In this document: in pieces, positions 9,140-59,953 of the stretch
Numbering within the stretch: the stretch's first letter is position 1
How the letters are laid out: the number at the start of each line of letters is the position of its first letter
Source: Octopus sinensis
Lineage: Eukaryota
NCBI RefSeq assembly: GCF_006345805.1
Contig: NC_043001.1
Span: 68,448,001-68,512,000, forward strand
DNA length: 64,000 nt
Reading direction: 5' to 3'
Notes under the pieces: model-generated
Databases searched by the model: none
The model's input: only the letters and a program-made list of their open reading frames with translations
Told to the model about the DNA's origin: nothing
Position numbers and translations under genes: made by a program

Positions 9140-9628
9140 AATATTAATTTACTTAACATCAATTTAAAACCAGTAGCCAAGCATATAGAAAAATCTGAAA
9201 AATTCAAAAAAATTTTATTACATGCGTATAAGAAGGGATGACCACTAAGTGGATATCCAATATGCTAGAAGTAGATCACCTACGATCTGGCCACAAAGAA
9301 AAGATTGTTCTGTAGCAAAATTCAGCAAGCGCCCTAATATAAGCTGGTAAGACAGACGAAAATATATAAAATAAAGAATTAATCGTAGACCGATTTCGCC
9401 ATTAACGACTTTACTTACGTAACACCGTCCATGGACTCTTCAGTACGACCGTTCTAATTCAATATAATTCGCAGAACTGTATACGGATTGTCCTCATAAA
9501 ATTAGACGTGTGTACAATTCTACCGATTACATTGGGTTATTTTCAAATGTCTTAGCTCTGGCGGTTAGATCATAGGTGATCTACTTTTAGCATATTGGAT
9601 GTCCACTTAGTGGTCATCCCCCCTTATA
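9140..9628. mobile_element. PLE-type terminal element with inverted repeats and a hammerhead
   Basis: Inverted arms ~9233-9288 and ~9567-9625 (GATGACCACTAAGTGGATATCCAATATGCTAGAAGTAGATCACCTA), flanked by (TA)n. Confidence 0.65.
9383..9448 (-). ncRNA. Type I hammerhead ribozyme motif (minimal stem III)
   Basis: Minus strand reads UCGUA-CUGAAGA-GUCCAU...AUGGC-GAAA-UCGG-UC-UACGA. Stem I is UCGUA/UACGA; stem III is imperfect. Confidence 0.6.
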
Positions 9629-9704
9629 CGCATATATATATATATATATATATATATATATATATATATATATATATATATATGTATATATCAAAATGTA
9701 TATA

Positions 9705-9928
9705 TTTATGTGTGTGTGTTTGTGTTTTCTGTCCCGCCACCACAATTGCTTGACAACCAATATTGGGGTGTTTGCGTCCTTGTAACTTAGCTGTTCAGTA
9801 TATGTGACTGATAGAATAAGCACCAACCTTATCGGGAATACATCCAGGGTTCAATTGTTCAACTAAAGGGTGGTGCTCCAGCATTGCTACCGTCAAATGA
9901 CTGAAATAAGTAAAAGAATAAAAGAATA
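9705..9928 (+). mobile_element. SINE family A, 3' half
   Basis: GCTTGACAACC...GGTGCTCCAGCAT...GTCAAATGACTGAAATAAGTAAAAGAATAAAAGAATA tail. Confidence 0.8.
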
Positions 9929-10095
9929 CGAGAGAAACGTTCCGTACCACTAAACCAAGAGGGTTCTATGAATATTTACGATGTATTTTAAGTCTAAATA
10001 ATAATTCTGTTTACCTTTGCGTAACTGAAATATTTTGGTTGGATTATATAGTTATCAGTTTTACACTTTTTCTGTATTCTGTAACAGTCGCAATA

Positions 10096-10474
10096 TACTA
10101 TTCTACTATAGGCACAAGTCCTGAAATTTTTGGCGGGAGGAGGCCAGTCGATTAGATCGACCCCAGTACGCAACTGGTACTTAATTTAACAACTCGAAAG
10201 GATGAAAGGCAAATTTGAACTTAGAACGTAAAGACAGTCGAAATACCTATTTAACTGCCAACAAGGGGCTACACAGAGAGAGGACAAACAAGGACAGACA
10301 AACGGATTAAGTCGATTATATCGACCCCAGTGCGTAATTGCTACTTATTTTATCGACCCCGAAAGGATGAAAGGCAAAGTTGATCTCGGCAGAACTTGAA
10401 CTCAGAACGTAGCGGCAGACGAAATACCGCTAAGCATTTCGCCCGGCGTGCTAACGATTCTGCCAGCTCGACGT
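10096..10474 (-). mobile_element. tRNA-derived SINE family B (Nin-domain type), dimeric
   Basis: Minus-strand head GAGCTGGCAGAATCGTTAGCACG...GAGTTCAAGTTC (A/B boxes), then CCTTTCATCCTTTCGGGGTCGATAAAATAAGTA (Nin-like core). The core is present twice with two different tails. Confidence 0.85.
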
Positions 10475-57559: not shown

Positions 57560-58400
57560 AAATGTGTGGAAGATGGTATTTTTGAATATTTGAATTTTTT
57601 AATAAAAGATATAAATGTATATCTTTAAAAACTGGTAGAGGCTTCTTGTCTTATTGTTGTTATCAAGGACATATTAATATAAGTAAAAGAAAGATGAAAG
57701 AAATGATTAGTTTTATTATTAATAATTCGTTTGTAATGTTTGCAGGTACGGTGTTTCAGCAGGTGAATTCCAATGGGTAGCAATTGTAGCTCTCTGTTGA
57801 CCCACTTTCCTCATGCAAGTTCCTTTTTCTTAAAGACCTATGTGCGAGGAAAATGATGGATTTGCTTAAACTACTTGACGGATGCTGCTGATACATAGAT
57901 GATATATTTATGCCTAATTATGGTTTCTTCGAATTTTTACTCGGAAAAATATACCCTACTGAGATTATAGCCGCCAGAAATGGTAACAATGTAAGAAGTA
58001 TTAATTATGTATATGACAATTTAGTAGTTAAGGATACTATGTGCTGGCATTTATTAAAAAGCTGAAGATTTTGTTATGCAAGTGGATTCAATGTCATGGT
58101 CCAGTTGTAGAATACCTTCTTTTATTGGTTATGGTGTTTTTGCAGGGCAGATTGTCAGATATATTACTATTATTAATAATGCTAATAAATTTTCGTATAG
58201 AGTAAATAAACTGTTAAGACATTTAATAAAACAAGGATATAGATACGGTAAATTGGTTAAAACTTTTAATCGCTGTTTGGGTAGGAGACTTGAAATCCAA
58301 TCGTGCTTTGTTTTGGAGAGAATTGAAATAAAGCTTTCACATTTTTTTTATTATAGTAGTAACTATGGAAGACTGGTGGGGTTATTATTTGTATGGACAT
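57560..58400 (+). mobile_element. Degenerate Penelope-like RT (palm/thumb)
   Basis: IPMGSNCS-like motif, YIDDIF, GKIYP, GYGVFAGQIVRY...LIKQGY..KLVKTF. Confidence 0.7.
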
Positions 58401-58967
58401 AAATATTGGTCGCAATTTAGTATGTAATTTAGTTATTGTAGGTTTACTATTAATATCGATACAGACGTACATTGATTTATGTGTTTCTTTGTTGTAGTTT
58501 AATTTTAACGCTAGTATTTAATCTTACCTACATTTAGATTGAATGAATGTGGTTATTAAGCTTTCACTTTTATTATACTATGGTAGACTGAAGGGAATAA
58601 AATGTATGACTTAAAGGTTTAGTCACTGTTTAGTTGTATATTTAGGAGTTGGTTATTGATTTACTTATTGAATGTATTTTCCGATACTGTTGCACATAGG
58701 GTAAATGTTTTTGAAAGTTGTGGTTTATTTGGTATATTTGCTCCGAAACAACACTTATTTTAGTGCCATTGACACCACTGGATTGAATGGTAATACCCAA
58801 GTGTCGAAACCATAATGATACCCATAGGGCAGCTGATGATGGCGGTATGTTGGATTGTTGGTATGACTGCTTTTGTATATGTGAAATAGTGTTTTAACAC
58901 ACACACACACACACACACATATATATATATATATATGTCTGTGTGTGTATATATATGTATATATCAT

Positions 58968-59315
58968 TCCCAACAAAGCACGCGGAGTTCTGCTTTTGAT
59001 TCGACGGTCATTCGGAATGCTCACAGCTGCCATATTCCTACCCCTCTATGTCACGCTGGTGAGACCCATATTGGAGTACGGGATTCAAGCCTCTTCTCCT
59101 TATCTCCTGAAAGACATACATCATCTCGAAAGAGTCCAGAAGCTGGCTACCCGCATGGTTCTTGGTCTCAAGCATTTGTCTTATGAAGAAAGGCTGAAGA
59201 CGCTCGACCTTTATTCTTTCGAAAAACGACGTTGTGATCTCATTCTCGCTCACAACATCATAAGCGGAAAGTGTAACCTCTCGAAAGAGCTGTTCTTCAC
59301 TCCTGCTCCAGAGCG
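58968..59315 (+). mobile_element. CR1-clade LINE RT C-terminal fragment
   Basis: KARGVLLLIRRSF...LYVTLVRPILEYG..SSPYLLKDIHHLERVQKLATRMV.GLKHLSYEERLKTLDLYSFEKRR.DLI. Confidence 0.9.
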
Positions 59316-59360
59316 TGTATGCGTGTATATATATATATATATATATATATATATATATAT

Positions 59361-59953
59361 AATAGAAATATTAAAATAACTAAGTCTCTCTAAAAGAGAA
59401 CAGCGGCAGCGTTCCCGGAAAATAATAGTTATCGCCATACTAATATGGCATTCTTATAAAAATAAGAAAAAAGCTGTCCGCTTATTAGCTCCATGAGGCC
59501 ATCGCCTTAAGTTAGCTATTTGATACACAAACTGTATCCATATAACCTTCGAACAAGGGAGGTCAGTCGCTCCACACTACTTGACCGGCAGCTACAGACG
59601 CGTTTCGGAGTATTGCCCCTTTTAGAGAGACTTAGTTATTTTAATATTTCTATTATTGAAAACAAGTGGATGTATTCCACCGAAACTAGGTAAATAAAAC
59701 CATCGAACAGAGATTGTCGGAAGCGACACCTACTGGCTGGCTACGCTGCATTGAAAAGGGGCAATACTCCGAAACGCGTCTGTAGCTGCCGGTCAAGTAG
59801 TGTGGAGCGACTGACCTCCCTTGTTCGAAGGTTATATGGATACAGTTTGTGTATCAAATAGCTAACTTAAGGCGATGGCCTCATGGAGCTAATAAGCGGA
59901 CAGCTTTTTTCTTATTTTTATAAGAATGCCATATTAGTATGGCGATAACTATT
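59361..59953. mobile_element. Doubly inverted PLE-type element with hammerhead
   Basis: ~200-bp perfect inverted arms 59422-59621 and 59754-59953. Second inversion 59361-59396 vs 59619-59655. (TA)n flanks. Homologous to 19972-20276. Confidence 0.85.
59731..59799 (+). ncRNA. Type I hammerhead with U3:A8 core
   Basis: GCUGCA-UUGAAAA-GGGGCAAUACUCC-GAAA-CGCG-UC-UGUAGC, plus an extended stem I (UACUGGCUGGC/GCCGGUCAAGUA). Cleavage predicted after 59780. Confidence 0.75.

Follow-up and report, generated by a model that had tools for sequence, protein, structure and literature searches.

Animal non-LTR retrozymes (Cervera and de la Pena 2020, PMC7229834) are short, non-coding, low-GC units with one type I hammerhead ribozyme (HHR) each; they are tandem or dispersed, reach thousands of copies, coexist with PLEs, are self-paired when folded as predicted circles, and have already been proposed as non-autonomous PLE derivatives (PMC7229834; bioRxiv 2026.07.22.740005). 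The units described here resemble them in these respects and were found in a 64 kb stretch of Octopus sinensis DNA (the window: GCF_006345805.1, contig NC_043001.1, 68,448,001–68,512,000, forward strand). A 14–15-nt indel between units corresponds to one of 20 nt in coral retrozymes. Differences are the unit length (to ~495 nt, against 170–400 nt), a stem II region of up to 82 nt, U3-A8 and CCGA cores, and inverted arms with fixed tails, which are absent from the description in the consulted part of PMC7229834; circular RNA and cleavage were demonstrated there and are predicted here. Li, Clavereau and Pollet (2026, bioRxiv 10.64898/2026.07.22.740005) likewise treated retrozymes as non-autonomous PLE sequences, with consensus lengths of 51–972 bp, monomers, dimers and multimers, and many families per genome, as here; the taxa were vertebrates and four invertebrates, and 'mollus', 'octopus', 'cephalopod' and 'tail' do not occur in the main text of that preprint. 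That study relied on co-occurrence and pLTR homology, whereas we rely on insertion geometry and not on pLTR homology.

Hydra-clade PLEs (Craig et al. 2021, PMC8557442) share with the window elements (TA)n targets, an HHR near the 3' end and the published PLE signature, an inverted truncated 5' copy with a one-sided tail; unlike the window units, they code for RT and EN, with a tail of 30–40 bp and an HHR much nearer the end. One of them, Hydra-1_Obim, prefers (TA)n and carries a canonical HHR; as given in the consulted part of PMC8557442, it differs from every core found in the window. Poseidon PAc of Anolis (Frangieh et al. 2024, PMC11167929) is similar in two internal RT starts downstream of the HHR, AT-rich targets and cleavage of both strands, and differs in being autonomous, with a short tail and a protein-assisted HHR. 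The minimal HHRs of PLEs (Cervera and de la Pena 2014, PMC4209133) show the U3-A8 variant, an extra base before stem II, a palindromic stem III, motif pairs 100–700 bp apart on opposite strands and many divergent families per genome, all with counterparts here; unlike them, most window motifs have a real stem III of 2–6 bp, the minimal type being confined to 43309.

No description of cephalopod retrozymes of this type was found in the open literature searched, and Repbase, Dfam, subscription journals and the supplements of PMC7229834 and the preprint may contain these families; 'ribozyme' does not occur in the consulted part of the 2026 Octopus vulgaris repeat paper (PMC13282606).

Results and Discussion

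Hammerhead motifs: Nine loci were considered, 9383(−), 18350(−)/18573(+), 23696(−), 31389–33688, 42776(+), 43309(−), ~51020(−), 52068(−) and 59745(+). A type I descriptor (core CUGANGA/CCGANGA or U3-A8, stem II region ≤110 nt), composed after the motifs had been seen, gave 12 matches in the window, 11 at the listed loci and a weak one at 536(−); 100 block dinucleotide shuffles gave a mean of 0.61 and a maximum of 3, a comparison that the sequence-only reading had named as one that could refute it. Strict settings gave 9 matches (shuffle mean 0.08, maximum 1). The 11 cores (9443−, 18407−, 18578+, 31501−, 31994−, 32585+, 33081+, 33591+, 43339−, 52104−, 59751+) represent only 6 independent loci; all 11 possess the type I elements (core C3-A9, G12-A15.1, U16.1-H17; stems I–III, stem I open), which are incomplete in the decayed or half motifs at 23696, 42776 and 51020. 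The motif reported earlier for every locus was thus present in whole or in part at 9/9, complete in 6/9, and the five copies ascribed to the 31389–33688 array were recovered (31501−, 31994−, 32585+, 33081+, 33591+). The density of about one locus per 7 kb, 9 in 64 kb, is correct for this window; the very large genome-wide complement that the sequence-only reading extrapolated from it is a conjecture.

A relaxed descriptor with one core mismatch was discarded as noise (16 matches, 0–8 in 12 shuffles; 42779 and 23696 still missed). Rfam hammerhead models gave no match in three of four regions tested, and in the remaining one RF00163 scored 12.7 bits (gathering score 34), below threshold; RF00163 is short and presumably misses the motifs by allowing neither a long stem II nor core variants. 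Minimum-energy folds of 8 HHR regions reached z < −2 in 2 only, and most motifs were not in the active HHR fold in these models, which speaks against our main reading. Judged by their sequence the HHR motifs are real; self-cleavage is predicted.

Elements and lineages: The features are collected in Table 1.

Table 1. Elements, HHR loci and coding remnants of the window (numbering from its first nucleotide).
Feature	Positions	Strand	Details
Weak RT remnant, Hydra-like type	3523..3740	+	E 0.027
Broken Hydra-like PLE ORF (thumb, linker, GIY-YIG)	4018..4946	−	E 4e-33; GIY-YIG E 0.0011
Putative lineage A element	9122..9631	−	main arm end 9122; 65-bp inverted copy 9567–9631
Lineage B fold-back	18233..18888	+	HHRs 18573–18635(+), 18348–18414(−); core CCGAUGA
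Lineage C copy, truncated before HHR	19969..20277	+	~78% identity to 59362–59952
Decayed HHR	23659..23800	−	3' half intact; cleavage position after 23703, 44 nt from end
Broken Hydra-like PLE ORF (RT thumb, linker, GIY-YIG)	24122..27158	+	tblastn E 1e-10, 2e-5, 6e-11
Putative lineage A tandem, ~495-nt non-coding unit	31267..33917	.	five HHRs
Lineage B closed unit, 492 nt	42464..43119	+	tail, body with HHR, tail; terminal hairpin 43045–43119
Minimal HHR	43192..43343	−	CCGACGA; extra base before stem II; palindromic stem III
Broken Hydra-like GIY-YIG remnant	48511..48942	+	E 3e-19
Fold-back, 3' half HHR only (about 51019–51030, −)	50963..51255	+	arms 57/58 identical
Lineage C unit	51897..54000	−	46-bp head 53955–54000, tail, body, HHR 52068–52108
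1.7-kb insert, broken zinc-knuckle ORF, no RT	52124..53806	−	zf-CCHC E 0.0011, below cut-off
Decayed RT-like remnant	57560..58400	+	translation; one unnamed 75-aa relative only
Lineage C fold-back	59362..59952	+	HHR 59745–59786, U3-A8 core
Lineage B 3' fragment without HHR	60000..60163	−	long end = that of 42464–43084

One type I HHR was found per short closed non-coding unit of ~495, 492 or 357–362 nt, and no LTR-type arrangement was apparent among the repeats. Closed ORF-free units were seen at 31267–33917 (~495 nt, 5.3 copies), 42464–43119 (492 nt), and 59362 and 52068 (~360 nt); 9122, 18233, 50963, 23696 and 43309 give no closed unit by themselves. As circles the units folded more stably than shuffles (z −4.5 and z −3.5). 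That most elements are non-coding was borne out, the longest stretch without a stop being 58–77 aa in 8/8 elements tested. Closed ORF-free HHR units with PLE-type insertion geometry, one of them amplified as a whole, make non-autonomous use of PLE machinery the best reading. We consider it likely that the window is a mixture of three or four lineages of such short non-coding units, that is, animal non-LTR retrozymes (non-autonomous derivatives of PLE terminal repeats), and two truncated ends of coding PLEs (23696 and 43309). The guild of non-autonomous elements seen by the sequence-only reading therefore holds for several closed units but is not supported for these two loci. Its "about seven unrelated families" were not upheld, since clear homology between loci emerged when the regions downstream of the cleavage site were compared in 28 pairings (18xxx/42xxx, z 23; 59xxx/52xxx, z 7.8). 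The 9xxx and 32xxx elements are colinear and agree in the position of both ends (z 2.9, p 0.013); the agreement loses significance once the 28 tests are allowed for and points weakly to a single lineage A.

Lineage A: The inverted copy of the 9122–9631 element ends at the site matching 9224 and leaves a tail of 102 nt (arms 60/65 identical); its type I HHR lies at about 9381–9450, with cleavage predicted after 9388. The tandem consists of ~3.05 units on the plus strand (32398–33917) and 2.25 inverted units (31267–32385), with a tail of about 106 nt and five HHRs with a stem II region of 67–82 nt; consecutive repeated units (3 plus 2) were seen at this locus only. The five units carry four combinations of two markers, a mosaic at odds with the copying of one circle in a single round, which counts against our main reading.

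Lineage B: In 18233–18888 the inverted arm stops at the counterpart of 18763, which leaves a 125-nt tail (arms 229/260 identical). In 42464–43119 the HHR (42776–42831) lacks G12 and the direct tail repeats are 116/130 identical; only a few bases separate its left end from the position of the short end in 18233–18888.

Lineage C: In 59362–59952 the arms are identical (199/199), the inverted arm bears a 63-nt tail and the closed unit is about 362 nt. The 19969–20277 copy shares both 3' ends and the 63-nt tail, lies outside a (TA)n tract and is flanked by a 12-bp target-site-like duplication. The 51897–54000 unit ends in (TG)n at 51897 and measures 357 nt without the insert 52124–53806, so that two independent lineage C loci give closed lengths of 357 and 362 nt; the homology of its tail (53860–53954) to lineage C is weak (26 and 245 of 1000 shuffles). 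The insert is bordered by a 14-bp direct repeat (52110–52123 and 53807–53820) and is probably a LINE-related insertion into the unit; an atlas search with its zinc-knuckle ORF gave a best score of 0.78, a lead only. A reading of 52068 as terminal repeat of a coding, gag-like element was rejected: the ORF segment lies between the two copies of the 14-bp repeat, the unit regains its length when this segment is taken out, and the end of the segment resembles another repeat family. Origin of the unit by deletion from a longer ancestor is conceivable.

Other loci: The 50963–51255 fold-back has a tail of 165 nt and no relative within the window. At 23696(−) the 5' half of the HHR is decayed and stem I absent; the sequence probably represents the inverted end of the adjacent coding PLE, and no direct end matching it was found, the 3' side of the neighbouring ORF included. 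It was set apart from the guild because it abuts a Hydra-like remnant and because its 44-nt distance from cleavage site to end is as in published Hydra PLEs (PMC8557442). The 43309 locus, with its HHR 121 nt from a terminus in (TA)n, looks like the end of a truncated PLE and was set apart since its minimal HHR is of the type published for autonomous PLE ends (PMC4209133).

Insertion geometry: An inverted 5'-truncated copy with a one-sided tail, as in PLEs, was found at 9122, 18233, 19969, 31267, 50963 and 59362. The tails (63, 102, 106, 125, ~125–130 and 165 nt) equal the spacing of two family-specific 3' ends and, against our main reading, exceed the 30–40 bp of published PLE tails. In 6/6 elements with two ends the cleavage site lies 221–266 nt from the long end; the HHRs of published Hydra PLEs are much closer to theirs, another point against our main reading. 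The copies 19969 and 59362, which are independent and 78% identical, have the same pair of ends. Of the fold-backs described earlier, inverted arms were confirmed at 9xxx, 18xxx, 32xxx, 51xxx and 59xxx, and 42xxx has a direct terminal repeat with a hairpin; 23696, 43309 and 52068 are without an inverted arm. The (TA)n setting was corroborated: a (TA)5+ run lies ≤10 bp from 12/15 termini and from 2.2% of background positions, an enrichment biased upward since element ends were drawn partly by the tracts; the value for termini of other repeats was 11/34 (Fisher p 0.004), and 52068 ends in (TG)n. The window also contains true terminal-inverted-repeat elements (25255–26891 and 50075–50874).

Coding remnants: The interspersed PLE remnants proposed from the sequence were found at 4018–4946(−), 24122–27158(+) and 48511–48942(+), weakly at 3523–3740(+), and not substantiated at 57560–58400, which has the single short match of Table 1. 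The last may resemble Naiad. The 4018–4946 remnant has 3935 relatives; 24122–27158 is split by microsatellites and by the Tc1/mariner insertion at 25255–26891 (DDE_3 match). Hydra-clade PLEs are marked by a C-terminal GIY-YIG, a DKT motif and a CxCX5C linker, with no CCHH; the motifs occur in the two longest relatives and partly in the remnants themselves. Searches for long relatives of two remnants found none, and Pfam named 0/4 long PLE-like relatives. No pLTR match between the lineages and an autonomous PLE was found in the window, nor any of 7 window motifs in one paper's supplement, which counts against our main reading.

The 495-nt unit in public sequencing runs: The unit was covered end to end (30/30 bins each) by 8,043 contigs in run X1 and 16,363 in run X2, depths that concern one family and are not a copy number. 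It is present in 20 rows, which represent 11 studies and 6 organism codes; 4/20 were examined in detail and all four contained end-to-start joints. One contig of run X11 departs from the unit at 32807 and continues into (TA)n, with a flank that differs from the one in the window. No RNA sample was named among the rows containing the unit. In run X15, which like X11 is an RNA run by guess, one 521-nt contig closes the unit; a tandem gives an identical joint. A variant breaking the first stem II pair makes up 24% (X1) and 32% (X2) of local depth, which counts against our main reading. None of 26 variable places fell in the 13 core positions, an uninformative result with ~0.7 expected. No loose end led to an ORF among the 18 rows listed of 176, and a minority of copies may be joined to one. 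An exact search of metagenome contigs for a motif of this family gave no match.

Alternative explanations: All loci might be 5'-truncated ends of autonomous PLEs, the short units being partial tandems with chance truncation junctions. PLE insertions are mostly truncated with inverted ends, minimal HHRs are mostly single motifs from truncated PLEs (PMC4209133), and this account suits 23696 and 43309 and could extend to 9122, 18233 and 50963, which individually lack a closed unit. We nevertheless judge it unlikely for the whole set, against which stand the five head-to-tail ORF-free units at 31267–33917, the agreement of the two lineage C loci (357 and 362 nt), and the even contig cover of the whole 495-nt unit with its end-to-start joints and, among the rows listed, no loose end leading to an ORF.

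The dispersed low-copy insertions with exact common ends, one with a 12-bp duplication, and the array itself, with its inverted arm, two-end geometry and both ends in (TA)n, likewise make it quite improbable that units once derived from PLE terminal repeats spread as a DNA-level satellite by unequal crossing over and slippage with the HHR as a passenger, a route that is among those proposed in bioRxiv 2026.07.22.740005 and that would suit the mosaic array units and the common stem II-breaking variant. DNA-transposon MITEs or assembly artefacts with incidental motifs are suggested by the fold-back with 199/199 identical arms and by the terminal-inverted-repeat elements of the window; we give this explanation very little credence, as the asymmetric arms bear a tail on one side and adjoin near the centre, 3/5 arm pairs are only 88–93% identical, the geometry of the 100% case recurs in a diverged relative, and motif counts are far above those of shuffles. 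Non-autonomous retrozymes using PLE machinery are accordingly retained as the preferred reading.

Proposed mechanism: Tandem or tail-overlapping copies would be transcribed, and the HHR would cut once per unit to give monomers, possibly circularised (after PMC7229834). A PLE RT/GIY-YIG protein acting in trans would nick both strands of AT-rich DNA and begin reverse transcription at two fixed internal RNA sites (after PMC11167929). Priming from both strands would produce the inverted truncated second arm observed, and the one-sided tail would equal the distance between the two RT start sites, as PLE tails do in vitro (PMC11167929); read-through past the unit junction would yield tail-body-tail units, of the closed kind observed, or tandem arrays. 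The likeliest helper would be a (TA)n-targeting PLE, with Hydra as first candidate because of the remnants in the window and the HHR-bearing Hydra element published for Octopus. Two published observations weigh against this main reading: HHR cleavage is dispensable for PLE insertion in vitro (PMC11167929), and 8/9 Xenopus dimers were uncleaved (bioRxiv 2026.07.22.740005).

Implications

The class, and the idea of retrozymes mobilised by PLEs, are already published; the enzyme that moves animal retrozymes has so far been inferred from co-occurrence and pLTR similarity. Here closed non-coding HHR units bear the PLE insertion signature and their ends are reproducible; two RT start sites are thereby predicted for each family, for use in the published in vitro PLE assay. 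The motifs escape Rfam, and ribozyme counts in cephalopod annotations, such as the 235 hammerhead 1 loci of the giant squid (PMC6962438), may therefore be far too low. A bolder proposal, about which we are rather doubtful, is that cephalopod genomes hold a very large multi-lineage population of HHR retrozymes (10^4–10^5 copies of the 495-nt family, estimated from contig counts), invisible to Rfam, that give rise to circular RNAs and all owe their mobility to a single (TA)n-targeting PLE recognising RNA by its structure, with RT starts 220–270 nt past the cleavage site and tails 2–5× longer than any described. If this were true, the insertion ends would be direct genomic evidence that PLE proteins mobilise animal retrozymes, with the start sites named.

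Insertion ends

Elements of the window: At six loci an inverted truncated second arm was found, its 3' end offset from that of the main arm by a fixed one-sided stretch (tail); tail lengths by locus start: 9122, 102 nt; 18233, 125 nt; 19969, 63 nt; 31267, 106 nt; 50963, 165 nt; 59362, 63 nt. Independent copies reuse the same ends: loci 19969 and 59362 have both 3' ends in common (78% identity), the short end of 18233 is where 42464 starts, 60000 ends at the long end of 43084, and in the public sequencing run X11 one contig passes out of the 495-nt unit at the short end into (TA)n with a different flank. 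The signature of Penelope-like elements (PLEs) is an inverted truncated copy with a one-sided tail of 30–40 bp (PMC8557442); in vitro, two internal RT start sites mark out the tail between them (PMC11167929). The six loci have the inverted truncated copy and the one-sided tail, but their tails are longer (63–165 nt). The long end follows the cleavage site by 221–266 nt in 6/6 elements measured. (TA)n is touched by 12 of 15 termini vs 11 of 34 for other repeats, a count biased by how the ends were drawn.

Hammerhead motifs and families

Motif search: The window has a GC content of 35%, with many microsatellites and old repeats; its SINE and microsatellites have an octopus-like look. A type I descriptor, composed after the motifs had been seen, gave 12 cores, 11 of them (six independent loci) where the sequence-only reading had placed hammerheads; 100 block shuffles gave a mean of 0.61 (maximum 3), and strict settings 9 matches vs 0.08. 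At three loci the motif is incomplete (42779 without G12; 23696, 3' half kept; 51020, 3' half only). One motif has a U3-A8 variant core and another is of minimal type with an additional base 5' of stem II; both forms are in print for PLEs (PMC4209133). Rfam missed the motifs in the window regions tested, and by energy models few fold as active hammerheads.

Family comparison: For each of 28 pairs, the stretch between cleavage site and end was aligned. Elements 18233–18888 and 42464–43119 are homologous (z 23) and, with a fragment at 60000, constitute lineage B; 59362–59952 and 51897–54000, likewise homologous (z 7.8), make up lineage C together with the fragments at 19969 and 53955. For 9122–9631 and 31267–33917 a 190-nt alignment with both ends in register reached only p 0.013; from the sequence they are probably one lineage, A. 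The description of about seven families as unrelated therefore overstates their diversity. Among these pairs 50963–51255 had no relative, and 23696 and 43309 matched none of the other elements compared. Thirteen bases are identical between 9439–9453 (stem I 5' strand and core start of the 9443 hammerhead) and 23700–23712 (3' half of the 23696 motif; E 0.34), which may be chance or a vestige of common origin.

Closed units and other repeats

Closed units and other repeats of the window
Feature	Position	Organisation	Unit or remark
Lineage A array	31267–33917	three copies +, two inverted	ca. 5.3 copies, ca. 495-nt unit
Lineage B unit	42464–43119	tail-body-tail	period 492 nt
Lineage C unit	59362–59952	main arm opens with last 35 nt of tail, continues through hammerhead	ca. 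362 nt
Lineage C unit	51897–54000	1.7-kb insert bounded by 14-bp direct repeat	357 nt, insert discounted
Hairpin	43045–43119	36 bp, near-perfect; copy of lineage B long end	snap-back at 3', not 5', end
Old direct duplications	36365–37285; 8015–8571	370 and 165 bp	81–86% identity
HDV-like remnant	44445–44527 (+)	then broken ORF-like sequence	CPEB3 model (Rfam) 32.8 bits, gathering 35; E 7e-5 for window
Zinc-knuckle ORF segment, no RT	52124–53806 (−)	14–19 bases of the 3' end recur in a repeat, at one of its ends	repeat at 10102 and 16662
SINE-like family	7093, 9737, 19358, 23141, 34043, 34363, 41521, 41955	ca. 400 bp	74–91% identity
Two SINE-like copies	41521–42353	tail to tail	(TA)14 between
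Non-coding repeat family	27303–28936; 40852–41338	partial tandem	ends presumably Helitron-like
PIF1-like helicase, broken	55499–57137 (+)		E 4e-24; probably Helitron remnant
Tc1/mariner element	25255–26891	228-bp inverted ends, DDE_3 ORF	inside Hydra-like ORF
Older element	50075–50874	160-bp inverted ends	

The closed units hold no ORF above 77 aa and are too small for an RT. The type I descriptor found no hammerhead in the direct duplications. In the HDV-like remnant P3/L3 and J4/2 are apparently kept, P1 and P2 decayed; the sequence following it may be a LINE 5' end. The zinc-knuckle segment may represent a non-autonomous LINE that has ORF1 only and is partnered by a SINE.

Amplification: One unit (32560–33055) was followed in contigs of four of the 20 runs containing it; 8,043 (X1) and 16,363 (X2) contigs matched, 30/30 bins being covered, depth not being equal to copy number. 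The end-to-start joint was present in 4/4 runs examined. One 521-nt contig of X15 holds the whole unit plus a 30-nt overlap, which a closed loop or a tandem fits equally; that X15 is RNA is a guess. A common variant breaks the first stem II pair.

Possible helpers

Broken ORFs at 4018–4946, 24122–27158 and 48511–48942 all match one protein family, long members of which have DKT and CxCX5C motifs, published features of the Hydra clade. Hydra-1_Obim of Octopus bimaculoides prefers (TA)n and has a hammerhead ca. 100 nt from its end (Craig et al., PMC8557442). The half motif at 23696 lies 44 nt from its end, adjoins a Hydra-like broken ORF and is probably part of an element of that type; an end in direct orientation matching that of 23696 was not found, nor a sequence link between any unit and any helper PLE.

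Overall reading

The elements behave as PLE parasites, and the 495-nt family has the sequence features by which an animal non-LTR retrozyme is recognised. Several results count against this reading: the 31267–33917 units are mosaic, a common variant breaks the first stem II pair, energy models seldom give active hammerhead folds, most Xenopus dimers stayed uncleaved (bioRxiv 2026.07.22.740005), and PLE insertion in vitro can dispense with cleavage (PMC11167929). The reading is accordingly weakest for the ribozyme step and stronger for the PLE-mobilised, non-autonomous nature. Animal non-LTR retrozymes (as many as 126,247 motifs in a single genome; PMC7229834), their origin from PLE terminal repeats (bioRxiv 2026.07.22.740005) and non-autonomous PLEs with head-to-tail insertions (PMC8557442) are already in print. 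The window adds the host, which is cephalopod-like, the length of the tails, and ends of insertions that point to PLE proteins.
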